DNA of 43,435 nt from a virus (taxonomy: Duplodnaviria; Caudoviricetes), in IMG/VR virus record IMGVR_UViG_3300033145_003435, positions 1 through 43,435 of that record; one strand, given 5' to 3'. Below, in pieces: positions 9,971-35,878 of this stretch. Below the pieces are notes generated by a model that had not been told where the DNA came from, did not search any database, and saw only the letters and a program-made list of their open reading frames with translations. Made by a program: the position numbers and the translations under genes. Within the stretch, counting starts at the first letter, position 1. Every line of letters starts with the position of its first letter.

Positions 9971-10014
9971 ATATTTTAGCCGGAATTTTGTCAAGTATGC
10001 TTGCTGCGCATAAT

Positions 10015-10043
10015 ACAGGATTTACCTCCTTATTGTAGAATTT
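10015..10043 (+). promoter_or_regulatory. sigma-H-like promoter of peptides 2 and 3
   Basis: ACAGGATTT-N11-GTAGAATTT. Confidence 0.65.
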
Positions 10044-10088
10044 AGTAAATAGTTATATAAATTATTTTTCCGAGAGGAGGTGCAATCC

Positions 10089-10244
10089 ATGAATAAGGAA
10101 AAACCATCCAATGATAAATCTCAACCAAAAATAATTCCTCCTTCTCCTCCTTCAAAGGGCAGTGAAGGGCAAAAGTGGGAAATTTTTTCTCTCGATTCCC
10201 CATCATTTAAGGACAAATCCGAAACCCCTAAAGGGGGCGAATAG
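10089..10244 (+). CDS. Pro/Lys-rich peptide 2 (51 aa)
   Basis: AGGAGGTG RBS; MNKEKPSNDKSQPKIIPPSPPSKGSEGQKWEIFSLDSPSFKDKSETPKGGE. Confidence 0.8.
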   Translation: MNKEKPSNDKSQPKIIPPSPPSKGSEGQKWEIFSLDSPSFKDKSETPKGGE

Positions 10245-10273
10245 AGAATTAATCCAGAAAGGAGTGCGTTTTT

Positions 10274-10393
10274 ATGACAGACCAAAAACAACCAACAAGT
10301 AATACCGGGCAAACCGGAAGAAAAAATATTAATGATTCCGTTGATTCCCCTGGATTACGGAGAAAACCAGATAATCCACCGCCGAAGAAATGA
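10274..10393 (+). CDS. Pro/Lys-rich peptide 3 (39 aa)
   Basis: AAAGGAG RBS; MTDQKQPTSNTGQTGRKNINDSVDSPGLRRKPDNPPPKK. Confidence 0.75.
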   Translation: MTDQKQPTSNTGQTGRKNINDSVDSPGLRRKPDNPPPKK

Positions 10394-11089
10394 TTAACTT
10401 TCATTAAGCATACCTTCGGCGCTCATTGCTTCATTAACTTTGTCTGGATCAAACAGTCGTACCACAACTCCAGATCGTGTATCTGTGTATACTTTTATTA
10501 CTGGAACTTTGTAATTCTTAACTATCGTTGTACAATCTTCAATATCATCAAGAACCAAATTGCGTTCCGGTTCTGACGGCCGGGACGCTTTTCTTATACA
10601 TCCAATAATCTCTTTTTGAGGATCACCCAGTTTACTTATGCCAACTACCTTTACGCCATAAGGAACAATAAACTCAGCCCAAACTGTTGTCATTTTGGAA
10701 AACCTCGATAAATTTCGTTTTCCTCTCACCCCGTTCACTAATGCTAAAAACTTATCATAAATTTTCCCAGTCACAACATAGGCAATTAAAAAACTTGTGA
10801 TTGATGAAATTAGCAAGTACCCCACCAAAAAACGGATGTTATCTGTATAGTTTTGGATTTGACTTAAATCACTTATGTAAGTTAACTTGTATACCTTATG
10901 GTTTATAAACGCCACTAAGTTATAAAGAAACAAATTCAAAACAGTTACTGGTACCCACAATAAAACGCTTATTGCTGTCATCTCGTAAAAATTGTGTTTT
11001 TCTGATGGTTCAACCCCAAAAGCCTTCATCCAATAATAGGCTAGTAATCCGGGTAAAACAAAAACAAGTGTTGCTAAAAAGTTCTCCAC
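10394..11089 (-). CDS. DUF6338-like membrane protein 2, distant paralogue of 9111-9797
   Basis: VLPGL, YE, N..R, TVW, EP..L.LD, VY motifs shared in the same order; AAGGAG RBS. Confidence 0.75.
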   Translation of the reverse strand: MENFLATLVFVLPGLLAYYWMKAFGVEPSEKHNFYEMTAISVLLWVPVTVLNLFLYNLVAFINHKVYKLTYISDLSQIQNYTDNIRFLVGYLLISSITSFLIAYVVTGKIYDKFLALVNGVRGKRNLSRFSKMTTVWAEFIVPYGVKVVGISKLGDPQKEIIGCIRKASRPSEPERNLVLDDIEDCTTIVKNYKVPVIKVYTDTRSGVVVRLFDPDKVNEAMSAEGMLNES

Positions 11090-11109
11090 ATTCTCACTCC
11101 TTTATATAT

Positions 11110-11138
11110 AATTTCAATGTGCATCCTTTTTTCCCTGC
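11110..11138 (-). promoter_or_regulatory. sigma-H-like promoter of membrane protein 2
   Basis: GCAGGGAAA-N11-ATTGAAATT. Confidence 0.45.
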
Positions 11139-11181
11139 TGGTAATCATCAACTTAATTATACTTGACCAGGCAGAAAGTTT

Positions 11182-11209
11182 GCTGCGCATAATAGTCCTA
11201 CTGCGACAT
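11182..11209. repeat. dif-like 11-6-11 site
   Basis: GCTGCGCATAA-TAGTCC-TACTGCGACAT; TTGCTGCGCATAATA also occurs at 10001-10015. Confidence 0.6.
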
Positions 11210-11248
11210 TAATTTCTTGTTCAACTATCGCTATTTCCGTTAGTTAAA

Positions 11249-11473
11249 TTACGCAGAAATTTTTCCTTCGCTAACTAAATAGTCAAAAAACAATTTTAAC
11301 CCTTCGCTGTTAGTTGCATTTTTCATTTCCATCGCTGTGGAAAATTGTCCAAAATTTTCTTGAAGATAATTTACCGATATAGTGCCTTCCACCCATTCAT
11401 TATTAATTTTACCCGCATAAGGACAATAAGTTTCACTATTTGAGTATTCTAGTAATTCCTCAAAATTCGTCAT
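11249..11473 (-). CDS. hypothetical protein (tail-tip region)
   Basis: 74-aa ORF coupled to upstream gene. Confidence 0.65.
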   Translation of the reverse strand: MTNFEELLEYSNSETYCPYAGKINNEWVEGTISVNYLQENFGQFSTAMEMKNATNSEGLKLFFDYLVSEGKISA

Positions 11474-11474
11474 T

Positions 11475-11927
11475 TTAAAATGCTCCTTTCTTAATTAAAA
11501 TAACTTCATAAGTATGATCAACTGCGCCTTCATTTTTAAGGTAAAACATACATTCTTTGTTAACTACATCCTCCATTTTTGTGGCACTCCGAAAATTAAA
11601 CATAGTTGTAGTATCGTTTATTAATGCGATTTGTATATATAGAGCACTTATTCCCCCTAGGGGGTCACTGAAAGGAGAATAATACAATTTAATACCTTGC
11701 CCCCCTTCACCGTTTCCCGTATCTATTCTTCGAACCCGTAAAGCGATACTTTTACAATCTGAAATATCAGTTTTTGTATCTTTTATTAATGAAGTTGCTC
11801 CAGCTGTAATAGAAACCGTTGCTGCAATTTCAGTCTCCGTTATTACTGGCACATTACTTCCCGATAGTTCAGTACGAATTGCTTTTGTTCCACCTGATAA
11901 CAAATCACTTAAATTAAATAAAGACAT
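11475..11927 (-). CDS. hypothetical tail-associated protein
   Basis: 150 aa, beta-rich, AAGGAGG RBS. Confidence 0.65.
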   Translation of the reverse strand: MSLFNLSDLLSGGTKAIRTELSGSNVPVITETEIAATVSITAGATSLIKDTKTDISDCKSIALRVRRIDTGNGEGGQGIKLYYSPFSDPLGGISALYIQIALINDTTTMFNFRSATKMEDVVNKECMFYLKNEGAVDHTYEVILIKKGAF

Positions 11928-11939
11928 TTTATCCCTCCT

Positions 11940-12278
11940 TTAAAAAACATTATTTTCAGTTAAAGTACCTGCAATCGACGTTTTTTTATCACTTCCAATT
12001 CGCATTAACCCCAAACCATTATTCTGCGTTAACTGTGGAGTAATTAAGTTGCCATGTTCGTCAACTCGCAAATCAGTAACCGTTATACTGCTCTTAGTTA
12101 AATCAAATAAATAAGTAGTTAATAAATCAAATTCTCCCGCCTCATCAAATTGGTGTGTATCATCTAATTGGTATGTATCGTCTATTTGTTCCGCATCATC
12201 ATAAGATGGTTCTTGCGTATAAAGATTCCCTGCAATTTTAAGATTATGGCTACCATCTATTCTTGCCACTATGCTCAA
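11940..12278 (-). CDS. hypothetical tail-associated protein
   Basis: 112 aa with QIDDTY/QLDDTH/QFDE repeats. Confidence 0.65.
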   Translation of the reverse strand: MSIVARIDGSHNLKIAGNLYTQEPSYDDAEQIDDTYQLDDTHQFDEAGEFDLLTTYLFDLTKSSITVTDLRVDEHGNLITPQLTQNNGLGLMRIGSDKKTSIAGTLTENNVF

Positions 12279-12289
12279 AGCCTCACCCC

Positions 12290-12883
12290 CTATGCTGTAT
12301 AAGTAATATCTAAAGAGTTTTGACTTGAATTATATGCAAGTTTAAATTTACTCCCTAGACTTACACCGCTAGCGTTCGACATTGTTAAATCACCTGTCAT
12401 TGTCGCACCTACTAAATTCGCTTTTTTATCTAATTCAACTTTTAACCCTGCTGGGTGGACTGCTCTTGTGCCATCTGTACCAGTTGTAGTTTCTGCCGCG
12501 GTTGCTAATTCAACGTGACCTGCTTGTGCTTCTGACGCTTCATCAGCCTTATGCGACACAAGATCGTTTATCCAACGACCAGAACCAGTAGTGGGCTGCA
12601 CAATCGAATTATCGTCTGCTGCTAATATGCTGGTGCTGTCAAACCTGTAAAAACCAAGGCTTTTTACTATTATTGTGATATTGTCTGGCGTATTTGTTGT
12701 ATTTATAGCCTTTAATGCTGTAAGGTCCGCGACTGCACCGAGAGCTATTTTTTGGAGGTCACCAATTTCGGTATCAATAATATCCCAGTTATCGTTAAGC
12801 ATTGTATCAATATTAAAGGTATCATTCCCGTCAGCAGTAGGGTCCTTTTTATATAATGCTATATTAGGTGTATTGCTTGCCAA
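12290..12883 (-). CDS. short tail fibre protein
   Basis: MASNTPN..LYKKDP..DGNDTFNI..MLNDNWD N-terminus after the baseplate genes; GHVELATAAE...AVHPAGLK fibre repeat. Confidence 0.75.
   Translation of the reverse strand: MASNTPNIALYKKDPTADGNDTFNIDTMLNDNWDIIDTEIGDLQKIALGAVADLTALKAINTTNTPDNITIIVKSLGFYRFDSTSILAADDNSIVQPTTGSGRWINDLVSHKADEASEAQAGHVELATAAETTTGTDGTRAVHPAGLKVELDKKANLVGATMTGDLTMSNASGVSLGSKFKLAYNSSQNSLDITYTA
12532..12559. repeat. dif-like 11-6-11 site inside tail fibre gene
   Basis: CTGACGCTTCA-TCAGCC-TTATGCGACAC, encodes VSHKADEAS on the minus strand. Confidence 0.55.
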
Positions 12884-12894
12884 CTTAACCCCTC

Positions 12895-13452
12895 CTAAAG
12901 CACCGGTTCAAACGGTGCAAAGTCCGTCAACTGGTGCATTTCCATGTCATTTAGTGTTATGGTGTTGTGGATCTCATTAATTAATAGGTATTTATACTCG
13001 TATTGAACTGCCAGGTGAGCTGGTTTGATGTCCTCTATAGCATCCATCAAATCTTGTAGGTTTGGTGGTGCGCCTAAGGCATCTATAAACTTGACAATAA
13101 AACTATAGCTCGCTGTATCTTCGATAACCTCGACAGTGCCGTAAACATACGATTCAGCTACATTTTTTATTAAATTTACGGTTAAAGTACCAATACCTCT
13201 GATCTTGGATATAATCCTACTCCGCCGTTGACTCAAAGGTTTTCCAGCATACGAACTTAAACCTAACATTTGTTCCCATAAGGTCAGCCCTATCTCAGTG
13301 GCCGTCTCCACGTAGAACTGGTTTAAAATATCCCGAATACCGGCTCGGACATCATCAGATTCTTCCCCCTCAGCATTCAAAATAGATAAAATCACATTAC
13401 TATTTCGTAAAAATACCGGTATGTAAGTTTTCATTACATCATATCTACTCAC
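12895..13452 (-). CDS. YmfQ/XkdU-like baseplate protein
   Basis: QFYVETAT..GL.LWE...RRSRI...IKPAHL. Confidence 0.85.
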   Translation of the reverse strand: MSRYDVMKTYIPVFLRNSNVILSILNAEGEESDDVRAGIRDILNQFYVETATEIGLTLWEQMLGLSSYAGKPLSQRRSRIISKIRGIGTLTVNLIKNVAESYVYGTVEVIEDTASYSFIVKFIDALGAPPNLQDLMDAIEDIKPAHLAVQYEYKYLLINEIHNTITLNDMEMHQLTDFAPFEPVL

Positions 13453-14491
13453 CCAAGCTCACCGTCCCAACTATAGCCACCTCTGTATCATCTATAGTCA
13501 CATTTGCGGTACCTAAATTAAGGGTTAAGCCTGTATAATCCAGCACACCACTTGTATCCAACAGCAGGCTGCCAACCTGAGCATAGCTTACATAATCCTG
13601 TTCAAAAGCTATCCCCTGCAAATATGATTCCAGGGATACTTCAAAGGCGGTCTGTACATCGGCCAGGATAGCTTCAGTAGCAAGGGTCACCGTTGCACTC
13701 ACATCTATATCCAACCCGCTTGCACTCGCTACCGTTACCGTTGCACCTATAGGACGTACATCATCTATATAACCTGACACATCTGTAACAACTTCGCTGC
13801 TTGCTGGCTGTTTATCGGTATCGATTATTACCACTTTTACGGTTCCGGCACCATTCCATATAGGAAATACCTTTGCATCCCCTATACCTGATACCTCTTT
13901 GGCCCACTGTTTATAGTGAGCACTGTTACCGCTTGTGGCTGGTTCACGGACTGCTTCAAGTAGTCTCTCTAGGAGTGCTGCATCTGTTTCCTGATCTGTA
14001 CCTCCAGTAGTTGGAGCAGCATTTGTAACTGCAGTTACCCCAGCAATCGATACTGGAATATGAGTTATGGCTGCAGTTGGTACATTGCCGCTGGATCCAG
14101 TAGATACTGCCTCCACTATAGCATCTACTTGGCCAGTCTCATCAATAGATATCTCTACAGTCGTTTCAAACTGCACTCCTGCACCAGTAGAAAAGAGTGA
14201 ACCATCTGCTATAACAGCCCCTTCGCTACCTGTTATAGTTACCTGTCCAGTGGCTTTAGTAGCTACCTTCCGGGTCAATCCATGCTCACCGGCTCGATAA
14301 TCAAGGTACTGGCCATATGTAGTCTGCGCAAATCCATACTGCAATACTAGGTCCATCTGTATATATGCTTGAGCCAGTTCAAGAGCAGCAGGAGCAAGAG
14401 CGTCATAAAAAAAAGACCCCTCAGACTTGTCATATTCGTCAGGGATCTGCGACAGCATTCTTTGTAATATCTCTTCTTTTGTTTCAGCCAT
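13445..14491 (-). CDS. baseplate J/XkdT-like protein
   Basis: EGSFFYDAL, GQYLD, GGTDQETD, SGN..HY..WA. Confidence 0.9.
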   Translation of the reverse strand: MAETKEEILQRMLSQIPDEYDKSEGSFFYDALAPAALELAQAYIQMDLVLQYGFAQTTYGQYLDYRAGEHGLTRKVATKATGQVTITGSEGAVIADGSLFSTGAGVQFETTVEISIDETGQVDAIVEAVSTGSSGNVPTAAITHIPVSIAGVTAVTNAAPTTGGTDQETDAALLERLLEAVREPATSGNSAHYKQWAKEVSGIGDAKVFPIWNGAGTVKVVIIDTDKQPASSEVVTDVSGYIDDVRPIGATVTVASASGLDIDVSATVTLATEAILADVQTAFEVSLESYLQGIAFEQDYVSYAQVGSLLLDTSGVLDYTGLTLNLGTANVTIDDTEVAIVGTVSLGE

Positions 14492-14492
14492 T

Positions 14493-14945
14493 TTAGAATA
14501 TTACCTCCTGGTCAATAGTTCGGTTATCTTTTAATATGGTTGTGAAACATATCTTTGAAGTAGCAATTTCTTGGCTTGCTCTAAAGTTTTCGATTCTTGA
14601 TATTTCAGGATGCTTTAACATTGTTTCGGTTATTTCTCTTTTAAGCTCAGACTGAATAAAACCTACCGGGTATCTTTTCCCCATTATCAGTTTTTTTATA
14701 GTTACTCCATATTCATCTTCATTGGTATTGTCTTTTTCGTAAATTTTAAACTTGAATTTATCAGTTCGCAGTACCTTTTCAACCCATATTTTAACCGCCT
14801 CAACATCTCCGACCTTTACCATTTTTCCATCCTGTAAAACAAACTCATTTTTCTTAAAGTCAAACAGAAAACTTATACCTAATGTTTGTTTTTCTTCTTT
14901 CGTTATTTCAGAAGATACGGTATCTAAATCTAAGCTAGGAAACAT
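14493..14945 (-). CDS. XkdS-like baseplate wedge protein
   Basis: FDFK..EF...DG, AVKIWV.K.LRT, YG, SELKREI.E. Confidence 0.8.
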   Translation of the reverse strand: MFPSLDLDTVSSEITKEEKQTLGISFLFDFKKNEFVLQDGKMVKVGDVEAVKIWVEKVLRTDKFKFKIYEKDNTNEDEYGVTIKKLIMGKRYPVGFIQSELKREITETMLKHPEISRIENFRASQEIATSKICFTTILKDNRTIDQEVIF

Positions 14946-14956
14946 GCCATCACCCC

Positions 14957-15280
14957 TTAGAGCTTAGTTATTCTATCTATGATAAACCAGGTTTGCTCAT
15001 CTGCTGTATGAATTAATAAAACGTCATCCCCTGTTTTGAGGGTGTCTGTTAGTTCGATGGTTCCTGCTGCGACCTCGGTTGTGTACTGCCTGGTATAACC
15101 CGATACAACATGATCACAGCAGTACAGTTGCTCTTTGTACAGAAGTATGTTTCCGTCAATTATACTAACCTGCAGATCAGGGGCTGCGGATACGACTTTC
15201 CCTACCACACTCCCTATAAGGGCTTTGTTTTCTCTCTCCTTAAACAACTTGGCCAGTTCTGTATCCCATTTGCCTGGCAT
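14957..15280 (-). CDS. XkdR-like baseplate spike protein
   Basis: GKVVS..P.L, LKTGD.VLL, FIIDRI. Confidence 0.8.
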   Translation of the reverse strand: MPGKWDTELAKLFKERENKALIGSVVGKVVSAAPDLQVSIIDGNILLYKEQLYCCDHVVSGYTRQYTTEVAAGTIELTDTLKTGDDVLLIHTADEQTWFIIDRITKL

Positions 15281-16281
15281 TACACCACCTCCTCTACACC
15301 CAAGGACATTTTATGAATCGAATTGTTATAAGTGTGCGTGCATTCCTTAACTAAATAATTTCCGCTAAGCCCGAAGATACCATTGTTGATGGTTAATATC
15401 CGGGCGCTTCTTACTGCATCATCCCCTAATAACTCTATGCTGATATCCTGCTGCACTTTGTTAAGCTCAGCCAGCTTGTTATTTGCTATGTTACTGGCCT
15501 GCGAAAAATCCGCATCGTCGATGCTCTCCACATCTTGCAGCAATCCGTATTTTGCAATACTGGCCTCATCCGTAACTGCAGTTACTATCCTGGAGCTTTG
15601 TTCGTCGCCAGAAGTGATCTGTATGCTGTTACGCAGGGCCTGTATGCTCTCTTTTTTGTTTATGCTGCCTATGGCATCCGTAATATTAAAGGCAGCTAAG
15701 TTCGGGGCAGGCTGAAACGTAGCCGTTACAACCAAATCCACATAGCTCTCTATGTGCAACTTGCCAGCTCTCATTTCTAGCCTGTATTTTACGCCGAGTT
15801 CATTAGTGGCTTGATTTAACAAATCCTTGATAATTTCTGCAATGGTTTTATCCTTATATATTTTAGTAATCTGAGTTGTTATACTCGTTATATTTCCTAC
15901 GGGTACGTTGAACTTGTTACACAGCTGCTTGACTGCATCCGTAGCTGATACCTTACGGAATTGAATAATTGTTTTTGACTGATTAAGATAAAAAGCATAA
16001 TCAAATGCAGTTATGCTTTTTTTGTATCTCTCCGTCGATAGATCTGTAATGATACCCCTAAATACTTCTGTTGAATTATTGGTGAGTATCACCTTGTCTC
16101 CTAGCTCTATCAAGTCATAATCAGCCAGGTATTTGTCTTCTATATTCCTTGCAGCATCAAAGGTTAATTCCATTCCTAAACTTTCTAAGCTGTCCCTCCA
16201 GGTTAAATTGGCGCTTAAAGCAGTAATATTTAATTTCTGGCCGGTGTTCTTAATGAGAAAAAGGGTGTACTTATCAATCAT
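15280..16281 (-). CDS. XkdQ-like baseplate hub protein
   Basis: ITAFD..YL, SIAKYGLLQ, H.MSL; position. Confidence 0.85.
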   Translation of the reverse strand: MIDKYTLFLIKNTGQKLNITALSANLTWRDSLESLGMELTFDAARNIEDKYLADYDLIELGDKVILTNNSTEVFRGIITDLSTERYKKSITAFDYAFYLNQSKTIIQFRKVSATDAVKQLCNKFNVPVGNITSITTQITKIYKDKTIAEIIKDLLNQATNELGVKYRLEMRAGKLHIESYVDLVVTATFQPAPNLAAFNITDAIGSINKKESIQALRNSIQITSGDEQSSRIVTAVTDEASIAKYGLLQDVESIDDADFSQASNIANNKLAELNKVQQDISIELLGDDAVRSARILTINNGIFGLSGNYLVKECTHTYNNSIHKMSLGVEEVV

Positions 16282-16283
16282 AA

Positions 16284-16703
16284 CTACACCACCTTTACGA
16301 ATCTATATTCTTTTAGCACCAGGCTATATCTTATGTCCCCGTTTCGCATAAGGCCGTAAGTGAAAGTATCGATTAAGCAGGCCATGTTGAGCCATTCTAA
16401 GTCGTCTTTTAAGCTCATCACAATGCGTATGGGGACCTTCGCTGCACGCCATTTATTTAAGAATTCTACATACGCCCATCCGTCGCTGTCGCTGCCTGCT
16501 TTAAGCCAGGCATAATCGTGCGTAGGGAATAGTGAACTAATAGATAAAGTTCTGAGCCCCATGTCCCCTATAAGATTTAGAACCCCCGCATTAATCGTTT
16601 GAAATTCTTCGTTGTTTTGTGGGTTTGTTAGGTCCGTATCCGCGGGGGCAATAGGAAACACCAGCACTTCTTCATTGTTGTTTGCGCTTATAACTATATT
16701 CAA
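16284..16703 (-). CDS. XkdP-like tail tube initiator (no LysM)
   Basis: SISSLFP, GDI.YSL.LKEYR. Confidence 0.75.
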   Translation of the reverse strand: MNIVISANNNEEVLVFPIAPADTDLTNPQNNEEFQTINAGVLNLIGDMGLRTLSISSLFPTHDYAWLKAGSDSDGWAYVEFLNKWRAAKVPIRIVMSLKDDLEWLNMACLIDTFTYGLMRNGDIRYSLVLKEYRFVKVV

Positions 16704-16717
16704 AAATCCACCCCCTC

Positions 16718-18493
16718 CTATGTCATAGTAACATTCCCGAGCTGCTTTTTAGTTTTCAGCAATATTGCGTTACCGAGCTTATTTATTAAGTCGTCTTCCC
16801 CGTACACGTTTCCGTATATATTGACAACCAGCGGCGGGTTTTTGTCATCAGCCTTGTTGATCGGAGTATTATTGTCGCTCTTACTGCCTACAGCCGGCCG
16901 GTTTATGTCAGTAATCTTGTTGATTGTGTTAGTAATCTTGTTGATCGGAGTATTATTGTCGCTCTTATTGCCTACAAACCTGTTTGCTAGGTTTATTAAA
17001 CCTTGTGATCGCTTTGTGCGTTTCAAAGGAATAGCCATCTCCGGGCCTGCCTCGCCAAAAATAGAAGGCTTTGTTGCTATGCCTCCTCGCGCAAAGGTAG
17101 GTATTTCAGGTATATTTACACCAACTTCTTTTCCGCCTATAACGGGGATCCACTCGGGGACCTGAAAATCTAGTTTGTTAATGCCCCTAATAACTAAGTT
17201 GACACCTGTTATAAGGAAGTTTATAAAGCTCTTAAAACCCGAGGTAACATTATCCCAAATATCAGAAAAGTATTTCTTGATAGGTGCAAAGGCTAACTTT
17301 ATTCCCTCCCACAGCTCTGCTGCTTTCGCTTTGATTTTATCCCAGTTCTTATATAGCAAATACCCTGCCGCGACTAAGGCTACTACTGCTATAATGATCC
17401 ATCCAAGGGGGCTCAAAGCCAGTGTCCCATTTAAGATGAGCCAGACAGTGTTTAGCGCCATTAAAACTGTTTTAGCGATAGAAATAGCTTTTACAACGGT
17501 GTATATGGTACCCGCAATTACCAGAATGAACTTTATAACTTCCTTATGCTTTTTGACAAAATTATAAATTCCTTTTGCGGTTTTTATAATTTTATTCACT
17601 GTTTCTGTTACTTGTTTACCTATTTTTTCAAAAGTACCATCCTGCTGCCACTTTTGGAGCTGATCCGCAGCCTGTTTAATTTTGTCTTTTAGCTGCATAT
17701 GTAAACTGCCCTGCTTTATCGTGCCGTCCTCTTGCATACCCACGATTTTAGCAAGGCTAGATTTTGTCACACCGGTTATCGTACTCCATAACCCCTTTGC
17801 AGTTCCAGCCAGTTTATTTGCTCCGCCCTTAAACTTCTTTTGCATAGTAGCCTGAAGTATTTCTTCCATTTTGATCTGATCCACTACTTGTCCTTTTTTA
17901 TTGAATACAACATCAGCACCGTATTTCTCCTCCGCGGCTAACATTAAGTCATTTTTTTTAATTCCAAACTCTTTTAGTCTTTCCCATTCTCCCATAACAG
18001 CATCAGCCATTGCTTCGGTAGCTTGGTCAATGGATTTATTGGTACCACCAGCCATATCAGCTATATCAGCCAACCATCTTTTGCTACTAAGTCCGTACGC
18101 TTCCATTTTGGCAACTGATCCAACAACTTCACCTGTTTCAAATGGTGTCTTATTTGCGAATTTAACTGCATCTGCCATTAGAATGCCTGCTTTTTTAGTA
18201 TCCTTTACCGCGGTCTCAAGCTGCACCTTATAGCCTTCCATATCAAAAGCTTCTGAAAAGCCTGCCTTAATTGCTAATCCCCCGACTACTCCGACCATTG
18301 CGGTTGCAGCCTTTGCCGTATTTTTCACCATTTTGTCTACCGTTCGGGTGGTTGTTCTGCCCCATCTACGCACCTGGTTCTGTGCCCGTTGCATTCCCCT
18401 GCTGACATTTTGCACATTGTGACTAACACGAACAAGAGGATTTGAAATACGATCCCGTAAGGATAATATAGTTGCTATTTGTCTGCTTGCCAT
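16718..18493 (-). CDS. tape measure protein
   Basis: FANKTPFE tape-measure motif, TM segment, FARGG...GEAGPE. Confidence 0.9.
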   Translation of the reverse strand: MASRQIATILSLRDRISNPLVRVSHNVQNVSRGMQRAQNQVRRWGRTTTRTVDKMVKNTAKAATAMVGVVGGLAIKAGFSEAFDMEGYKVQLETAVKDTKKAGILMADAVKFANKTPFETGEVVGSVAKMEAYGLSSKRWLADIADMAGGTNKSIDQATEAMADAVMGEWERLKEFGIKKNDLMLAAEEKYGADVVFNKKGQVVDQIKMEEILQATMQKKFKGGANKLAGTAKGLWSTITGVTKSSLAKIVGMQEDGTIKQGSLHMQLKDKIKQAADQLQKWQQDGTFEKIGKQVTETVNKIIKTAKGIYNFVKKHKEVIKFILVIAGTIYTVVKAISIAKTVLMALNTVWLILNGTLALSPLGWIIIAVVALVAAGYLLYKNWDKIKAKAAELWEGIKLAFAPIKKYFSDIWDNVTSGFKSFINFLITGVNLVIRGINKLDFQVPEWIPVIGGKEVGVNIPEIPTFARGGIATKPSIFGEAGPEMAIPLKRTKRSQGLINLANRFVGNKSDNNTPINKITNTINKITDINRPAVGSKSDNNTPINKADDKNPPLVVNIYGNVYGEDDLINKLGNAILLKTKKQLGNVTMT

Positions 18494-28437: not shown

Positions 28438-28459
28438 GGGCTCACCTCCTAAAACCTCA

Positions 28460-28905: not shown

Positions 28906-29232
28906 TTGGCTCGCCTACTTTCTGCCACAAAAAAAGAGCCTAAAGGCCCTTTAACTTTTATTGCATAAATATTCACTTATAAAAAACGGTATCACACATC
29001 AATGAACCCTCACAACCGTGGCGTTTGTTCCATTTGATTTAATCAATATTTTTCATTAAAACTGAGCGATTTTAGTTAAAAATGTATAAATATCCAGTTA
29101 CCCTAAAAACATATTGTGTTGAACTCGTTAGTAGCCTCTCAAGCCGCTATGTTTCTGTATTTACTAGGATTAGTAAAAAGCAATTACACATAACTCTAAT
29201 ATGGGTAATACGAAGGAAAAGCAAAGAGAATT

Positions 29233-29781
29233 TTAGTAAATCTTAAATCCTTTAAAAGCATGGTCGATATCTTCCTGTTCAATACCAATATAACGAAGAG
29301 TAATCTCCGGATGACTGTGGTTAAATATCTTCTGCAAAGTAGCAATATCCTTGTACTGCTTATAAAAATGGTATCCAAACGTCTTTCTTAATGTATGGGT
29401 ACCCATGCTTTCTATCCTGAATTGTTTAGCTGCATCCTGGAGTATCTTATATGCCATACTCCTTCCTATTGGTTGGTTATATTTCTCCCTACTCTTAATT
29501 AGGTAGTCTTCCATATCTCGCCCCCGGCAATAGATAGCTAGTTCCCTTTTTAAGATCGGGTTAATCTCAAAAGTCTTTGCTTTGCCGGTCTTTTTTTCCC
29601 GAATTGCTATAGACTTTCGGTCTTTTACATTAGAGATTTTTAGCCGTAATATATCCGATATCCTCAAACCCGTGTAAATCCCTATAAGGTACATGATATA
29701 ATTACGATCACTTTTATCTTTAAAGTAGTTAGCAATATCCTCAACTAAAGCTGGATCTCTAATCGGCTCCACAAAGTTCAC
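29233..29781 (-). CDS. small catalytic-domain-only tyrosine recombinase
   Basis: GLRISD, HTLRKT, FNH, RYIG. Confidence 0.9.
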   Translation of the reverse strand: MNFVEPIRDPALVEDIANYFKDKSDRNYIMYLIGIYTGLRISDILRLKISNVKDRKSIAIREKKTGKAKTFEINPILKRELAIYCRGRDMEDYLIKSREKYNQPIGRSMAYKILQDAAKQFRIESMGTHTLRKTFGYHFYKQYKDIATLQKIFNHSHPEITLRYIGIEQEDIDHAFKGFKIY

Positions 29782-29960
29782 ATAACCACCCGCCTCCGTC
29801 TGGTTACCACTCTGAGCATGGTATCTTTAAAAAGAGGGTACTGGATAACACGGTAAAGATACGGGTCCACTTCCAGTTTACTAATTGAAATTTCACTTTC
29901 GTTTTCACCCTGCTTACAGATGATAGCCGCATCAAGAAATGCTTTTACCTTTTTATCCAT
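29778..29960 (-). CDS. hypothetical protein
   Basis: GGAGG RBS, overlaps next start codon. Confidence 0.6.
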   Translation of the reverse strand: MDKKVKAFLDAAIICKQGENESEISISKLEVDPYLYRVIQYPLFKDTMLRVVTRRRRVVM

Positions 29961-30031
29961 ACTTCCTCCAAATAAAAAAGAGCCCGAAGGCCCTATAATT
30001 TCATGTTATCTACTGCTTTTTATCTATATCA

Positions 30032-30220
30032 TTATTCATCAATTGGAAAAGCCTTTAAAAATGCCTTTGAATGAGTGTTGATAATCATTTCTTTACCAAA
30101 AAAATCAACCTTTAATAATCCAGAAACGCTATCCCATTCGATAACCTCTACAGGTGTTGTTTCAGTCATTCCGTCTTCATTTATATGTGTAATCCGATAT
30201 CGCTTATTTAAATTAAACAT
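30032..30220 (-). CDS. moron-like hypothetical protein
   Basis: Own RBS, sigma-H-like promoter (30250-30279) and downstream terminator (~29975-29994). Confidence 0.65.
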   Translation of the reverse strand: MFNLNKRYRITHINEDGMTETTPVEVIEWDSVSGLLKVDFFGKEMIINTHSKAFLKAFPIDE

Positions 30221-30398
30221 CTTAATACCCCCTTTCTGCTTTTCTATTAGTTTTCGCTAAAAAGGAAGTATTTCCCTGCAATATAAAAGCCGGTCGAGTC
30301 CACCTTGGGTACCCGCCGGCATATTGCCTTTAAATCATCGGGGCCCCAACCTGCAGATTAGGAACCCCTCCTCAAAAGTTTTCAAGTTTTTACATTTA

Positions 30399-30463
30399 TA
30401 TTATAACATCTTTTAAGTCCCTTTATGTCCGGGATTAGTCCGTAAAATGTCCGGATAATGTCC
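30399..30463 (-). promoter_or_regulatory. probable late promoter with phased activator sites
   Basis: GTCC at 30417, 30427, 30438, 30449, 30460 and extended -10 TGTTATAAT on the minus strand. Confidence 0.65.
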
Positions 30464-30474
30464 AGATATAAAAG

Positions 30475-31002
30475 CTACTGAAATAAACCGCCCTTCCATT
30501 CTTCCGGAATGTCTTCTTCCGGTACCTCAATCTGCATAAGCATAGCCGTTTTCAAAACTACTCTTTTCTGCAAATCAAAATACGAACTCCTAGACATCTG
30601 CAGTTTCATCCATACCTCTTTCTCCCCCTTTTCCAGTTCATAACGCAGCCTATATACCAGTTTTTCCTCTGGATCAAATGACTTCATCGCGTTCTCTAAC
30701 ATCTGGAGCTGTATTTCTTTGCGTTCAATTCTTTCTTCCAGAGATTCTTCTTTTATTACATAGGTTTCGCTGGGGGAAGACACGCTGGATGACTGAACTA
30801 CAACCTGTTTCAACTGAGCCGTAATGCTCGTACCAGCCAGTTGGTTCAGCCTCAGCTGCAAATGCATGTTTTTCAACTCAGATTCCATATACTTATACTG
30901 CCGGAGAAACCTTTCGGATCTGCGGTACCAGTCTGGTTTTTTAGTTTTTTTTTCAGATTCTTTAATATCTTTTACTTTGCCGCTGGGATAGTATATTCTC
31001 AC
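30475..31002 (-). CDS. ArpU/RinA-like late transcriptional activator
   Basis: E..L..Y, coiled coil, EK.V..LRY...SRSSYF C-terminal HTH; last early gene. Confidence 0.75.
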   Translation of the reverse strand: MRIYYPSGKVKDIKESEKKTKKPDWYRRSERFLRQYKYMESELKNMHLQLRLNQLAGTSITAQLKQVVVQSSSVSSPSETYVIKEESLEERIERKEIQLQMLENAMKSFDPEEKLVYRLRYELEKGEKEVWMKLQMSRSSYFDLQKRVVLKTAMLMQIEVPEEDIPEEWKGGLFQ

Positions 31003-31100
31003 CTGGCATCCTCCCCTCATTTGGTTTAAAATATTTACCTCTTCTTCCGTTGCTAAGAAAAAACGTCATGATAGCAACCTCTTTAGCTTCTCCCTTTTCT

Positions 31101-31128
31101 CTGTCGTTTAATCGTTGTACTGCGACGT
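31101..31128. repeat. dif-like 11-6-11 site
   Basis: CTGTCGTTTAA-TCGTTG-TACTGCGACGT, 2 bp past a stop codon. Confidence 0.55.
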
Positions 31129-31130
31129 AA

Positions 31131-31535
31131 TTAAATTGCATATTTCGGGATTTTCATCCATGCAATCTCATCGTCATCGCACCCGTAAAACCTTTCGTGC
31201 TTTTTATCACAGGAGGCTATTACTACCCTCTTAGAGCCGCATCGATTATAAACTGATACAAAATACTGTCCCGGTTTATCGGGATACTTTTCGGCGGTCT
31301 GAATCCAACCTGCCCGATTTTCAACGAAGTGTTTCGGCCACGGCATCCAGGCAATAACGTTATAGCCCAAAAAACCCTTCTCTAATGGGCTTTTTGGTGT
31401 TCTTTGCAATCCGGTTGTCGTATAAAATACCGGATATCTAACTACGTAAAGACTTCCGTCCTTACGCTTCGCTACTGCAAGGCATTTTGCCATATCGCTG
31501 TCTGGTTCTCTCTCCAACACATGAATCCACTTCAT
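31131..31535 (-). CDS. tandem DUF551-like domain protein
   Basis: Two WI....P ... IAWM.. units. Confidence 0.65.
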   Translation of the reverse strand: MKWIHVLEREPDSDMAKCLAVAKRKDGSLYVVRYPVFYTTTGLQRTPKSPLEKGFLGYNVIAWMPWPKHFVENRAGWIQTAEKYPDKPGQYFVSVYNRCGSKRVVIASCDKKHERFYGCDDDEIAWMKIPKYAI

Positions 31536-31596
31536 TTGCACTTTCCTCCCTTCTGACGCATCATTATTACCAAAAAAACACAAACAACACAAACAC

Positions 31597-32061
31597 CTAT
31601 CTTACTTGATAAATTCCTGTGCCAAAAATCCTGTCCATCCTGTTATCAAAGCTCTTCTTTATCTTATTGAACTTTATGTACCTCTTTTTGTACAAGCCGA
31701 ATGTTCTTTCTAGCTTTTTATCAATTTTTTCATAACAGTTAGATATTGACTTTAAACTATTTATAATGTCCCTTCTAAAGTCTTCTTTTTGATAGATGTA
31801 AACTCTAGTCAACTCGCTTATGAAAAACAAAAACTCACCAGAAGAAATAATCTCTTGTGTGTATTTCCTTTCGCACTTAACACCATATTTGGACAGAATC
31901 AACACCGTCCGGTTAAGCAACTCATCATCCATGCTTTCTATAATTTCATTAGCCTCATGTTCTTGTTGTGTGCCGTTTACATAATTCTTAATCGATTCAT
32001 TTACTTCCTTACCCATCAAACTTTCAAATTCAGCACACATTGAATTGTGCATGTAACTCAT
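31597..32061 (-). CDS. hypothetical protein
   Basis: 154 aa, AAAGGA RBS. Confidence 0.6.
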   Translation of the reverse strand: MSYMHNSMCAEFESLMGKEVNESIKNYVNGTQQEHEANEIIESMDDELLNRTVLILSKYGVKCERKYTQEIISSGEFLFFISELTRVYIYQKEDFRRDIINSLKSISNCYEKIDKKLERTFGLYKKRYIKFNKIKKSFDNRMDRIFGTGIYQVR

Positions 32062-32200
32062 AGCTGTATCCTTTCATTCACTGGTTGATGATGCTTTATT
32101 TCAACAATCGGTATCAATCCGTGAACAAAATGACAAAAACAATCACTTAGCGCGTGGGCTGCTACACGCCAATTTTTTTTTAAATGATTTATGTATTTTT

Positions 32201-32404
32201 TCATTTGCCATTACTCCTTTTTGCCATATTGATGAAATAATCGCACCAACAAGCAATACATTCCGATTCGCTACACATATCTCCACTACATTTTGTTGAT
32301 GGGGTATAGCCTAATTCTTCTACTGGACAAGAATTAGACAAGTTATAGCTACACGCCAATTCTAACGCTTTCTTTGCAACTTCTAATTCTTTAATATTTT
32401 TCAT
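32201..32404 (-). CDS. Cys-rich hypothetical protein
   Basis: GAGGAGG RBS; ALELAC...CP...C...C...C..CW. Confidence 0.7.
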   Translation of the reverse strand: MKNIKELEVAKKALELACSYNLSNSCPVEELGYTPSTKCSGDMCSESECIACWCDYFINMAKRSNGK

Positions 32405-32419
32405 CCTCCTCACTCCCTT

Positions 32420-32447
32420 CTGTCGCATAATAAACATACTCCGTATC
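32420..32447. repeat. dif-like 11-6-11 site
   Basis: CTGTCGCATAA-TAAACA-TACTCCGTATC between the ssb stop and the next RBS. Confidence 0.55.
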
Positions 32448-32832
32448 AAAGCGGCACTTCATCTCCACCATCAACAATCTCAATATCGTTCAGGTCAAAC
32501 TCTTGCCCTAAATCGCTCCATCCATTAAGCGTACTTTTGTGTTTATTCAGTACATACACCCGATTTGCAATAAAACTCCAATACCTTTTGTTTTGGTATT
32601 TATGACTTTGCATCTGCCCTGAGCATAGCACCAAGCTACCTTTGCGGATATCCTCTGCGGCAAATTCTGCTGTTTTATTAAAGCAAGTCACGTTAAACCA
32701 ATCAGTTTCTTTATCCTTACCACGACTCACAGCTACAGAGAATTTGCAAATTGCAACCCCTGCTTGGCTATATGTTAGTTCAGTGTCCCTTCCAGCGTGT
32801 CCCATGATTTTACAATCGTTCATGTACGGCAT
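32446..32832 (-). CDS. ssb: single-stranded DNA-binding protein
   Basis: FSVAVSR, TDWFNV, KGSLV..G, acidic tail DEVPL. Confidence 0.9.
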   Translation of the reverse strand: MPYMNDCKIMGHAGRDTELTYSQAGVAICKFSVAVSRGKDKETDWFNVTCFNKTAEFAAEDIRKGSLVLCSGQMQSHKYQNKRYWSFIANRVYVLNKHKSTLNGWSDLGQEFDLNDIEIVDGGDEVPL

Positions 32833-32836
32833 TTAT

Positions 32837-33604
32837 TTATCTCCTTTTCCGTTCCCCTATTTTGCTATAAATATCCGCTATGATAATTCCCGTCCTTGTT
32901 AGCTCAGCATCATTTTGGATTAGATTGTTTTGATTCAGTCTCGCCAGCTGCGCTCGGGAAACAAGAATAAGATTATCAATGCCAAAATTCAACTTATTCC
33001 CATCTCCAAAGATAATTACATGTCCCTTGGGCACAGGCCCATTAGCAGCCTCCCAGATCAGTATATGCTTGCCTTTCCACTTGTTCGGGTCCGCAATTTT
33101 GATATCCACATAACCATCGCCGTTTACTCTTTCAGTTCCTACTGGTCGGTAATTCCAGGGTTTATGGCCTTTTTTAAACTGGGTAGGTTCCCAGCCGCCA
33201 ACACCCTTTTTACCTTTGTTAGCAGGAACATGACCCTTTTGAAATCTACCGTCCTGACCGCTGTTAAGTTTATGATTCGCGTAATAACTTTTAAGCTGGC
33301 TGTGCGTATAATCCGTGCCGAATGTCTTATTCAGCAAATCTGTCATATCTTTAGGCCCGACATCTTTATAATTTGCCGCTATGAACTCCTTTATTTCCTT
33401 CGGATATTGCTTGGAAGGTAATCCTTTCGGCAATCCGCGCGACGTTCCGCTTTTTAGGTTATGGTTTTTCTTGTATGCTCGCATTTTCGATTCAGTAAAA
33501 TCCAAGCCAAATTCAGTATTAACCAATGCAACCAGGTCTTTTGTCGTTGTTCCCTGCACATACTGTTTTATAAAAGCCTTAACTTCCTTTGGATATCTTT
33601 TCAT
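32837..33604 (-). CDS. HNH endonuclease-domain protein
   Basis: Duplicated N-terminal repeat, FQKG..P.NKG, H.LIWE..NGPVPKG..IIF.DGNK.N...NL. Confidence 0.8.
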   Translation of the reverse strand: MKRYPKEVKAFIKQYVQGTTTKDLVALVNTEFGLDFTESKMRAYKKNHNLKSGTSRGLPKGLPSKQYPKEIKEFIAANYKDVGPKDMTDLLNKTFGTDYTHSQLKSYYANHKLNSGQDGRFQKGHVPANKGKKGVGGWEPTQFKKGHKPWNYRPVGTERVNGDGYVDIKIADPNKWKGKHILIWEAANGPVPKGHVIIFGDGNKLNFGIDNLILVSRAQLARLNQNNLIQNDAELTRTGIIIADIYSKIGERKRR

Positions 33605-33607
33605 GTG

Positions 33608-33862
33608 CTACTCCCTTAATAATGACGCTTTTAACATTGGAGGCATTTTTTTATCTTCCTCATCCCCGTTACCGTACTCGTGCAAAAATGTCTTCGCTTT
33701 CAATACCAATGAACCATTTGCAATAACTTGGGTAGCTATATCTGAAACCGCCTTCGCCCTATTTATTTCTTCAGTCAGTTTCTCACTAGATAAATCTTCA
33801 TCCCCTAAACGTTCAAGTTGTGCAAACAAATGGTTATTCAAATCACCTAATGTGTTTCTCAT
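33608..33862 (-). CDS. conserved phage protein
   Basis: MRNTLGDLNNHLFAQLERL...EEINRAKAV. Confidence 0.8.
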   Translation of the reverse strand: MRNTLGDLNNHLFAQLERLGDEDLSSEKLTEEINRAKAVSDIATQVIANGSLVLKAKTFLHEYGNGDEEDKKMPPMLKASLLRE

Positions 33863-33950
33863 CAATAAATCCTCCCTTCTACATAAACACTGCGTCACAT
33901 CTTAATTACTAGCAGCCATTACACCAGTGCATAATTCCGACCAATTTCCA

Positions 33951-34346
33951 CTAACTCTCTACCAACTTAACCCCAGCAGCGCTTTCTATCTTCTTCAAAA
34001 TGTCGTGTACTCGGCCATAATTATGATCATAATACTTGTCTTGTTCGAACCACTTTTTAACCTGATCCACTTTACCAGACTCGATGATTAACCCGATAAA
34101 ATCTTCTTCGTAGAGCCAACCAATTCCATGATGAGTAAAAATATCTACCGTTATTTTTCTTTCACCCGTGTTGGCTCTTTCTATCCACTGGGCCTCTTTG
34201 TTAATGTATTTACCATAGCCAATTTCAGGAAAACTCAGTTCTGGCCTACAACTTCTAATTTCGCTCCATACTAAAATTGTTTCGTATCCGCAGCTGTTAG
34301 CAAAGAATTCGCCCGGTTCATTTGTGAATAACACTTGTTCTTTCAC
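33951..34346 (-). CDS. hypothetical protein
   Basis: AGGAGG RBS, GTG start. Confidence 0.6.
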   Translation of the reverse strand: MKEQVLFTNEPGEFFANSCGYETILVWSEIRSCRPELSFPEIGYGKYINKEAQWIERANTGERKITVDIFTHHGIGWLYEEDFIGLIIESGKVDQVKKWFEQDKYYDHNYGRVHDILKKIESAAGVKLVES

Positions 34347-34373
34347 TATTCCACCCCTCCTAAACTCCCCCAA

Positions 34374-34853
34374 CTAACCTGCATCAGCTTCTCCTTCCCA
34401 TTCCGCTAGAGTTTCTTCTAATGTCAATAAAGCCTGCATTGTATATCCAGTAATAACACGGCACCCATTCCTAGTTTCTTTGTCTAAGTTTTCTGCTAAT
34501 CTATCGGCCGCATTAATAACCTTCTCAACTTTTGCTGTCCGCTCTGACACCACATACGGTATTTGCTCATCATCCTCAACAGTAAAATCTATATCAATAT
34601 ACCCCTTACGCTCTAATTTCTCCGTATGCTCCAACAGTAGCTGGTTAATCGGCATCTTACATTCATCCAACACCATACTAATTAGGGTTTTACATGTCTG
34701 CATAGTATCCAGTGCTTCCCTAATTGTGTTCACCGGGTCGGCCTGTACTACGGCCTCGGCTACCTCCCCGGCTTCTTCAAATATCTTTTTTAATTGCCCC
34801 GGTATGCTCCAGCCGTGGGCCTTCCAGTCTACTTCGGGTAAATCTATTTTCAT
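34374..34853 (-). CDS. MazG-like domain protein
   Basis: KIFEEAGEVAEA...EALD acidic helix pattern. Confidence 0.55.
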   Translation of the reverse strand: MKIDLPEVDWKAHGWSIPGQLKKIFEEAGEVAEAVVQADPVNTIREALDTMQTCKTLISMVLDECKMPINQLLLEHTEKLERKGYIDIDFTVEDDEQIPYVVSERTAKVEKVINAADRLAENLDKETRNGCRVITGYTMQALLTLEETLAEWEGEADAG

Positions 34854-34876
34854 TTCGCTTATACCTCCTCTGTTCA

Positions 34877-35878
34877 TTATTGGACTAGGTACCGCTTATA
34901 CTGGTCACGCTTACGTTCCGCGCTAACCTGGGCATATATTTGTGTTGTTGCTGGGTTCTCATGCCCTAGAATAGCCTGTACACTGCTTATATCTGCTCCA
35001 TTGTTGAGCGTCAAAGTCGCGAATGTGTGCCTCAATGTATGCGGATGGACATTCTTTTTTATTCCTGATCTCTTAGCAATCTTTTTAATCTCTCGCTGGA
35101 TGCTTCGGCTTGATAACCTTCGATAGGGCTTTCGTTCAGTAATAAATAGCGCTGGTTCATCATCGAGCCGGGTCATGAGGTATTTTTTCAAATGATATAT
35201 AGCTTTAAAGCTGAAAAATACTTCTCTTTGCTTGTTCCCCTTACCAATTACTAAGGCCGACATAGATTGATAGTTAATGTCCTCTTTATTCATCCCTTGT
35301 ATTTCGCTTAACCTACCAGCTGTGGCATAAAGCACCTCTAACAATGCCCTTTCCCGGTATGTATTACAGGACTCACGTAGCATTTCAAGTTCCTCTATCG
35401 TTAATGCCTTCGGTAATCGCTGCTCTTTCTTCGGGGGCTTTATCTTCCGGGTAGGATCTCGCTCTATTATTTCCTCAGCAGTCAGCCAGCCGAAAAAACT
35501 TTTTAGCACCGATAATTTTTTAGATATCGAACTTGTTTTTAATTTGGGAAATTCGGCCAAATAGCTACGAATATCTCCGGTTGAAATTTGTTCAACAGGC
35601 TTACTAACATTCCTGCCAAATATTTTTAGCTCTGACTTATAGTCATCCAGTGTTAATGGGCTGAGCCCTTCTAATTTTTTAGCTGACAAAAACTGTTTTA
35701 CTTTGTCTTGTATATCCTGATGCATTCCCTGTAGCTGGGACGGTCTTACATCGTACAGAGAAATTATCCCTGCTAATTTCATTTGGAGTTGTGCCTGGTC
35801 TACCTCAGGGCACATCTGCATTACTTCTGAAACCAATTGAACTACCATTTGCTTACTGCAATTTTCTGTAATAGGCAT
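34877..35878 (-). CDS. XerD-like tyrosine recombinase with core-binding domain
   Basis: GRLSE, GKGNKQR, HPHTLRHT, LGH, TTQIY; GLS..TL..Y SAM-like domain. Confidence 0.95.
   Translation of the reverse strand: MPITENCSKQMVVQLVSEVMQMCPEVDQAQLQMKLAGIISLYDVRPSQLQGMHQDIQDKVKQFLSAKKLEGLSPLTLDDYKSELKIFGRNVSKPVEQISTGDIRSYLAEFPKLKTSSISKKLSVLKSFFGWLTAEEIIERDPTRKIKPPKKEQRLPKALTIEELEMLRESCNTYRERALLEVLYATAGRLSEIQGMNKEDINYQSMSALVIGKGNKQREVFFSFKAIYHLKKYLMTRLDDEPALFITERKPYRRLSSRSIQREIKKIAKRSGIKKNVHPHTLRHTFATLTLNNGADISSVQAILGHENPATTQIYAQVSAERKRDQYKRYLVQ

Follow-up and report, generated by a model that had tools for sequence, protein, structure and literature searches.

Ordered pairs of Xer-type sites around variable genes of a Firmicutes prophage as candidate points of cassette exchange between phages

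Temperate phages have mosaic genomes whose junctions lie exactly at gene edges, and how this comes about has long been asked; the usual answer is random recombination with subsequent selection. A 43,435-nucleotide stretch of tailed-phage DNA (IMG/VR record IMGVR_UViG_3300033145_003435; the whole stretch is called the window here) raises this question in a concrete form: its two accessory zones carry four copies of a 28-bp site, two inverted 11-bp arms around a 6-bp spacer, and the same window encodes a XerA-like tyrosine recombinase of 333 aa (34877..35878, - strand). To judge from its sequence, the window is a temperate Firmicutes myovirus prophage with most genes on the - strand. We think it probable that the four sites, which form two ordered pairs, are points at which this recombinase would trade the block that a pair encloses for that in the corresponding slot of another phage. 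The observations behind this reading are the sites themselves, their order, their recurrence around unrelated cargo, breaks of homology in the tail zone, and an intact recombinase whose clade often lies beside tail sites.

An initial annotation had proposed a family of Xer-type sites here, and each of the eight sequences it quoted, as full sites or single arms, is present at its position. In gene direction (- strand), the tail slot has site b at its inner end (12532..12559, GTGTCGCATAA GGCTGA TGAAGCGTCAG), in frame in the tail-fibre gene, and site a at its outer end (11182..11209, ATGTCGCAGTA GGACTA TTATGCGCAGC), which is intergenic. The early slot has site d at its upstream end (32420..32447, GATACGGAGTA TGTTTA TTATGCGACAG), overlapping the SSB stop codon and followed by a ribosome-binding site (RBS), and site c at its downstream end (31101..31128, ACGTCGCAGTA CAACGA TTAAACGACAG), 2 bp past the stop of open reading frame (ORF) 31131-31535 and ahead of the ArpU-like gene. 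All four lie in one orientation, with best scores on the gene strand. Scored with a model of 26 tail-zone sites from other phages, spacer bases 1-5 unscored, they are the window's four top matches (a 32.1, c 22.5, d 19.8 and b 18.5 bits; the 95th percentile of the best shuffle score was 17.4 bits in 200 shuffles), although the 26 training sites had initially been chosen by a window-seeded model, so that this test is not fully independent. A model built from the window itself, a circular test, returned 4 sites with a 6-bp spacer, against 0-1 for other spacer lengths or shuffled sequence. Loci selected by other means give a cleaner test. Among 48 early-region loci chosen via an HNH gene, not the motif (41 after near-duplicate removal), gene-strand matches reaching 16 bits numbered six at spacer 6, whereas seven other spacers had none and ten shuffles 0-1; stop-codon junctions gave 13 matches at spacer 6 versus 0-2 at spacers 4, 5, 7 and 8; and in loci picked without any DNA pattern, with no spacer base scored, we counted 46 junction sites at spacer 6 versus 12-16 at other spacers. 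This enrichment is the Xer/dif geometry, bears out the description of Xer-type 11-6-11 sites at variable-gene junctions, and, together with the top scores, confirms the full sites at 11182, 12532, 31101 and 32420. The annotation had also remarked that one arm lies a single nucleotide from the E. coli XerC arm.

The spacers of the four sites differ, and their variation is structured. In 42 junction sites outside the training set, found with the spacer unscored, base 6 is A in 31/42, and bases 1-3 form a concentrated triplet (match probability 0.106 versus 0.031, reached by 0/5000 column shuffles), which bases 3-5 do not (p 0.33); these address counts are raised in part by shared descent. Spacer bases 1-3 thus appear to act like an address, and the A at base 6 may reflect a protein contact rather than a need for homology, since the spacers of plasmid pdif sites and host dif sites end alike. 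Consecutive sites, moreover, come in ordered pairs. Among 34 unique pairs, the window's two included, we found GGC-to-GAC 12 times, GGC-to-GGA twice, TGT-to-CAA six times, and TGA-to-CAA and GAC-to-CGA twice each, a fixed order in 24/34 versus 2/34 reversed (one GAC-to-GGC, one CAA-to-TGT); the other 8 are of various kinds. In the window, the tail-fibre tip lies within a GGC-to-GGA pair and three early genes lie within a TGT-to-CAA pair. Unequal spacers in conserved ordered pairs suggest that like sites recombine with like between the genomes of two phages: the ends of one slot would not be partners, each pairing with the like site in another genome, which would resolve the problem of unequal spacers. 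The integron-style excision and insertion between unequal neighbours put forward in the initial annotation does not agree with fixed ordered pairs kept across phages, and the 31112-32431 circle it anticipated is, with like-with-like pairing, predicted not to form.

At the tail slot, the cargo (11210..12531, - strand) consists of the 3' part of the tail-fibre gene 12290-12883, which has PHROG tail-fibre matches, and ORFs 11940-12278, 11475-11927 and 11249-11473, for which we found no Pfam, PHROG or PADLOC match. Site b, as the earlier annotation overlooked, reads through in frame as S-H-K-A-D-E-A-S in the fibre gene. Two kinds of site recur in the tail zones of relatives: GGCNGA in frame in the fibre gene, comparable to b, and GAC..A or GGA..A in the intergenic space after the tip genes, comparable to a. 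Counterparts of site a follow the tail-tip genes in two further loci (L274, L283) and in the cultured Geobacillus phage phiOH2, which carries a GGC-to-GGA pair. A protein-level motif scan of 2247 ORFs gave 76 matches, and codons were counted in the 25 belonging to twelve motif classes. The third codon of the in-frame motif is G-ending in 17/17 matches read as tail proteins, versus 2/8 others, and its Leu is TTG in 11/11 (background 17%); this synonymous-codon bias indicates that the constraint acts on DNA.

The early slot (cargo 31129..32419, - strand) holds ORFs 32201-32404 (67 aa), 31597-32061 (154 aa) and 31131-31535 (134 aa). The first has no homologue except itself and the last has 5 homologues at 46-78%; two relatives at 43-44% are the only ones of 31131-31535 with DNA, the sample contains no close relative of the window's early zone, and no metagenome relatives of the ArpU-like gene were found. 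A TG-to-CAA slot occurs eight times in seven phages, with no tblastx similarity of cargos or flanks between different phages, and the window's early cargo shows no similarity to that of the seven other slots. In G005 (G numbers denote genomes, L numbers loci) the TGT-to-CAA slot sits at the window's position, before ArpU-like and mini-recombinase genes, and contains a reverse-strand 208-aa ORF and a 128-aa ORF; in G060 it surrounds a single reverse-strand 277-aa ORF. These two share 22 identical site bases within unrelated flanks. The slot is likewise present in G001, G185, G186 and G027. The same arms stand between stop codon and RBS in the early regions of unrelated phages, and at several consecutive small genes in L344, L345, L350 and L029. 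The strict early-site pattern was absent from 401 genomes searched in the class of G046, and a related pattern matched 3/112 genomes in the class of G048. De novo palindrome enrichment across whole flanks yielded codon-period noise only, a pattern palindromic throughout matched 8 loci, most of them unrelated, the window's arm followed by an RBS matched none, and alignment-based scans, being too broad, brought up mainly host Xer genes. The HNH gene pair was tried as a site-bounded cassette and rejected after the stop-codon-junction scan of the HNH loci.

Homology between phages breaks at tail-zone sites. Of 1606 alignment ends, 23 are no more than 20 bp from a site, versus 7.0 expected, a count inflated by redundant records. 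Of 32 flank comparisons, 11 reveal an in-register site of like address in the partner, past which identity falls to 7-19 of 40 bases; L026 and L032, for example, are 91.8% identical over 293 bp and then match at 8/40 past the site. Seven of the 11 show a spacer difference at base 4 or 5; the rows other than these 11 are out of register or conserved on both sides.

Which enzyme might act on the sites? The 333-aa protein has a core-binding and a catalytic domain and a conserved N-terminal extension of ~55 aa. It scores 241.5 bits on NF040815 (cutoff 220), which places it in the XerA-like class, has no arm-binding domain, and gave only SAM_1 and integrase matches in Pfam. R189, K213, H280, R283, H306 and Y315 are intact, and show little or no variation across 19 aligned sequences, so that it is not a dead recombinase of the MrpR type, in which catalytic residues are lost. 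Its scores fall short of the chromosomal XerC and XerD classes (TIGR02224 232.5 versus 335; TIGR02225 223.3 versus 330) and of integron integrases (TIGR02249 107.6 versus 265), and it aligns to IntI4 (2A3V) over residues 254-318 only. The best match of solved structure is the XerC-like recombinase 4A8E_A (E 3e-37). Proteins like it at E 1e-80 or better number 973 among 8000 candidates scored, and its named homologues come from Syntrophomonadaceae, Peptococcaceae and similar Bacillota. A quick tree, made for grouping only, puts it with L001, L002 and L005 and with the proteins of G001 and G005; these two genomes carry both a tail pair and the early pair. Among the neighbourhoods listed, the gene of close relatives lies mostly between tail-fibre and lysis genes. 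We searched the relatives' surroundings with leave-one-locus-out models. A GGC or GAC site lies within 3 kb in 19/39 relatives of at least 50% identity, and in five of these the distance to the gene end is 34-85 bp; three more of the 39 have early-class sites and two have other matches. Below 46% identity, a GGC or GAC site was present in 0/26. On these grounds the 333-aa protein is the best candidate enzyme, its link to the sites being drawn from sequence. The role given to it in the initial annotation holds insofar as it is intact and its clade is often beside tail sites; strict co-occurrence with the sites fails, complete phages with sites lacking the gene.

Taken together, the likely reading is double-crossover exchange of cassettes between phages, resembling what pdif modules do rather than integron-style excision. 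A homotetramer would bind the near-symmetric arms and cut at the spacer edges, like archaeal XerA (PMC3646895). Strand exchange would require a match at spacer bases 1-3, base 6 being fixed as A and bases 4-5 free to mismatch, so that only sites of like address would recombine. A prophage and an incoming or second phage in one cell would cross over at the upstream and then at the downstream address, exchanging the slot; with ends of different address, the slot would not be excised. At the tail, the in-frame GGC site would join a new tip to the constant fibre base. For phages lacking the gene, the enzyme would be supplied in trans; half-sites and tandem units such as that at 10003 would be left over from crossovers between unlike addresses. 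Precedents exist for parts of this scheme: single dif modules are replaced via two crossovers at like-spacer pdif pairs (PMC13141974), and IntDOT performs a homology-dependent first and a homology-independent second exchange (PMC2034462).

The closest known systems each share part of this arrangement. The pdif modules of Acinetobacter Rep_3 plasmids (PMC13141974) have 11-6-11 Xer-type sites between accessory genes, a spacer that picks the partner, replacement of a module by two like-spacer crossovers, and spacers that end in A beside a TTATG arm. The window, however, is a tailed phage with all sites direct, whereas pdif sites alternate C/D and D/C; its arms are near-mirror copies, none of them TTATGTTAA, partner matching seems confined to spacer bases 1-3 and 6, one site lies in frame in a structural gene, and a single phage-encoded recombinase is the likely enzyme. 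The XerD-type arm of host dif (TTATGT[AT]AA) is not what its right arms TTATGCGCAGC, TGAAGCGTCAG, TTAAACGACAG and TTATGCGACAG present. The archaeal XerA system likewise has one enzyme and two inverted 11-bp arms around a 6-bp centre (PMC5357621 and PMC3646895); the window's protein passes NF040815, is closest to 4A8E, and in relatives has a site adjoining its gene. There, however, one chromosomal site serves dimer resolution, and here there are many sites with unequal centres, which would serve gene exchange. In the Rin shufflon of Bifidobacterium prophages (PMC6109161) a XerD-like recombinase without arm domain lies beside a receptor-binding gene and crossover falls at the junction of constant and variable parts, but Rin inverts stored tips between 11-bp rix repeats within one genome. 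The window has one tip, slot ORFs all on one strand and two unlike direct sites, unlike Rin- or Min-type shufflons, and it has sites in the early region too; a single tip between unlike direct sites implies that new tips must come from another genome. IntDOT of CTnDOT is also a tyrosine recombinase that needs homology beside the first exchange only (PMC2034462), but is the integrase of a conjugative transposon, not a cassette-exchange enzyme.

Several observations weigh against exchange of slots by this recombinase. No breakpoint of the early class was found: of 34 candidates, 4 have a homologous flank elsewhere and all 4 are conserved on both sides, and none of the 23 near-site alignment ends is at an early site; the phages compared include no two close enough to reveal such a breakpoint. 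The differences at spacer bases 4-5 may have arisen after the swap. Homology often ends at gene edges anyway, and in the stretches fetched the Brevibacillus phages Davies, Abouo and Jimmer1 are mosaic with neither a site of at least 10 bits nor such a recombinase. Because related phages have sites in common by descent, the counts do not represent independent events. Nor is the enzyme required in cis or always near a site: 15/39 close relatives have no site within 3 kb, some of them on short contigs; G183 (100% complete) and G184 (92%) have early sites and no recombinase match; the annotation of phiOH2, which has the tail pair, lists no such recombinase; and in 22 HNH-picked records a site occurs in 2/5 with a distant XerA-like gene versus 3/17 without, one 41% relative below the score cut being counted among those without. 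In the window itself, 2.4 kb separate the gene from its nearest site, and it follows a replication gene instead of adjoining the tail. It may have been relocated, its closest relatives being in the tail zone, and complete site-bearing phages without the gene would mean either that it acts in trans or that another enzyme acts.

That other enzyme could be the host's XerC/XerD, as for pdif modules and IMEX elements, with the slot logic unchanged. The complete phages just mentioned speak for it, as does the A-TTATG junction that the phage sites share with host dif and with pdif sites (PMC13141974), and one host dif type (L367, ATTTCGCATAA TCGATA TTATGTAAACT) scores 16.3 bits on the site model. Yet three of the four difs scored give 5.5-8.8 bits, and the commonest dif of the bacterial class searched, which may not be that of the window's host, is G[GA]GTCCTATAA TAGATA TTATGTAAAGT, mostly one per genome; its TTATGTAAA arm is in no phage site, where both arms are near-mirror copies. 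The two phage-type sites of G103 (30-31 bits) are unlike its own dif, a recombinase of the clade being on another G103 contig, and in five loci sites lie 34-85 bp from the phage recombinase gene. Host Xer is thus less likely, roughly a one-in-seven prospect in our estimation. Slightly less credible still is the integron-style scheme of the initial annotation, in which single modules are excised as circles between unequal sites and inserted anywhere, by one-strand exchange that replication resolves. Integrons do share with the window single small genes framed by stop, site and RBS (as in L345 and L350), co-oriented sites and a tyrosine recombinase; base 6 alone is common to all spacers, the tandem DUF6338 units with their duplicated arm (see below) resemble accretion, and a 603-aa gene between two GAC sites in G103 could be excised. 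But free excision and insertion would scramble the order that 24 of the 34 pairs keep, with 2 reversed, the enzyme lacks an IntI score or full-length alignment (107.6 bits for a cutoff of 265, and 65 aligned residues), and the sites are of 28 bp. Integron attC sites are long hairpins, longer than this.

A regulatory role for the early sites, bound by CI/Cro or by an MrpR-like protein of recombinase fold while the tail sites alone recombine, we hold to be improbable, a shade more so than integron-style movement. It draws on the SPbeta repressor MrpR, a protein of tyrosine-recombinase fold acting on a repeated intergenic element (PMC10516654), on the TCGCA that the arms share with palindromes near cI/cro, and on the lack of an early breakpoint. 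MrpR, however, has no catalytic residues, whereas the window's protein has R-K-H-R-H-Y intact, an operator has no need of an ordered spacer code, and the TGT-to-CAA pair of G060 holds a single reverse-strand gene. Binding by CI/Cro, which the initial annotation had set against its own proposal, finds no footing at the sites: repressor-type palindromes TCGCR-N5-YGCGA occur at 41163 and 41413 beside cI/cro and not at a-d, TCGCA and TGCG being 5 bp apart in the palindromes versus 12 in the sites. Least probable of all, in our view, is that the sites are passive, either boundary sequences for homologous or RecT-type recombination, like T4 PeSL, or remnants of an inactive system. Half-sites and degenerate copies are indeed common, mosaicism arises without sites, and PeSL-mediated shuffling is documented (PMC2839356). 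Like-address sites, however, share few contiguous bases, and conservation of inverted arms exactly 6 bp apart and at synonymous codon positions is the signature of a site-specific recombinase.

If exchange between like addresses is correct, one phage group gains a testable alternative to random recombination, with named sites, a candidate enzyme and a partner rule (bases 1-3 matched, 4-5 free). It would also explain the spare 'XerD-like integrases' of Firmicutes prophages and the recurring S/A-H/Q-L-A-D/E motif of tail fibres, and would supply natural orthogonal sites for cassette exchange in Gram-positive hosts. More tentatively, and with somewhat less than even confidence, temperate phages of Firmicutes might share a genome-wide, address-coded standard for cassette exchange, with one XerA-like recombinase acting in cis or in trans on a 3-base code within the 28-bp site (GGC, GAC, GGA, TGT/TGA, CAA, CGA), by which unrelated phages would trade receptor-binding tips and early accessory genes; AAAA-N6-TTT arms in phages of the B. 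cereus group, described below, would be a parallel version. In that case some phage mosaicism would be programmed and would not stem from random illegitimate recombination. A literature search that covered few subscription papers and no supplements found no account of such sites in Firmicutes phages.

The single arms listed in the initial annotation fared unevenly. Half-site e (10001..10015, - strand; the arm at 10003) stands: it is an exact 15-bp copy of 11180-11194, that is, the right arm of site a with the last two spacer bases, and marks the junction of two tandem DUF6338 units. A possible right-arm relic f (31553..31564, - strand, A TGATGCGTCAG), just ahead of the RBS of 31131-31535, is suggestive: at 10.0 bits it ranks within the top 0.023% of positions on the gene strand, a level reached at about 10 places in the window. 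The 43% homologue of 31131-31535 in L454 has weak arms on either side, a right arm upstream (5.4 bits) and a left arm past the stop (3.7 bits), and at the homologue in L453 no site is above threshold. The arms at 33888 (8.2 bits, with about 30 equally good places in the window) and 11225 (3.3 bits) are no better than chance; of 41 homologues of the gene behind 33888, only two are preceded by a full site scoring above 9 bits.

The two DUF6338 units follow site a in tandem and share one layout. Accessory unit 2 (10014..11181, - strand) has a DUF6338-like membrane protein (10394-11089; Atlas score 0.93 to clusters with DUF6338 in 27-35% of members), and unit 1 (8887..10002, - strand) a DUF6338 protein (9111-9914, start uncertain; PF19865 E 1.7e-11) with 22% identity to it (E 3e-6). 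A 125-bp repeat of 90% identity (10012-10136 and 8887-9009) stops where unit 2 runs into the duplicated arm at 10003, and it may derive from a crossover of a full site with a pseudo-site within the shared TA-TT at the right edge of the spacer. Convergent with the DUF6338 genes are short Pro/Lys-rich ORFs on the + strand (8962-9108 in unit 1, 10089-10244 and 10274-10393 in unit 2), two of which share their first 16 residues; gene and convergent ORFs are possibly a small two-part immunity or exclusion unit.

Like arms also occur in other arrangements. In locus L382 (G103:C254, 4852-6900) two perfect sites (GACTCA and GACCCA) surround one 603-aa gene, which looks surface-exposed and stands amid metabolic and transporter genes, apparently a cassette outside a prophage. 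L362 (G102:C71) and L278 have similar arms with tandem identical or near-identical spacers (TTCTTA twice; TTTATA and TTTATG) around small accessory genes, possibly a related variant with true cassettes. In the three Brevibacillus phages (L468-L470), several homology blocks end at a repeat, CA[AG]CAGA[TC]CA[TA]TT..GACAAAAATAGGAGG, RBS included, which is a possible third junction motif.

The window's second tyrosine recombinase (29233..29781, - strand; 182 aa, catalytic domain only, phrog_216), after the ArpU-like gene, is an alternative candidate enzyme and has a looser palindrome pair of its own at about 29182-29209 and 29097-29124. As sole enzyme it was rejected, being absent from site-bearing G183, G188, G205 and G206, although it might act in phages that have it. 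Such a mini-recombinase is also carried by eight B. cereus-group phages whose replication-to-ArpU zones we compared (L385-L392: 11143, phIS3501, phiCM3, BtCS33, PfEFR-4, phBC6A52, BMBtp16 and MY192). The window-type model found 0 sites of at least 15 bits in their early regions. There, several blocks of 94-99.9% identity start and stop between genes at A[AC][CT]AAAA-N6-TTT, with centres such as TCGTTA, TCTTTA, ACGCTA and TTCTTA; the slot logic appears with other arms, and with apparent early-zone breakpoints, which the window's motif did not yield. A pair of loose palindromes follows the mini-recombinase in L385-L388 and L391; the first of the pair, in the B. thuringiensis phages, is similar to an inverted member of the window's site family and has spacer CGAAAT.

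The remaining genes run from the integrase (42389-43435) through cI/cro (CI 41454-42362), antirepressors, replication protein O with the recombinase gene directly after it (region 34877-36916), the early accessory zone and the ArpU-like regulator (30475-31020, between the early slot and the mini-recombinase) to the small tyrosine recombinase, the HNH and terminase genes, head and contractile-tail genes, the tail fibre, an accessory zone and the lysis genes. The scan of 66 window ORFs turned up no DnaC-type loader. Just beyond the lysis genes is a toxin-antitoxin defence pair, RmrT/RmrA of RosmerTA type (4951-6769; PADLOC E 3e-50 and 3e-155). The left end (1537-4609) is a separate module with a helix-turn-helix gene, an IrrE-type peptidase and a large serine recombinase on the + strand, which suggests a second element adjoining the prophage.

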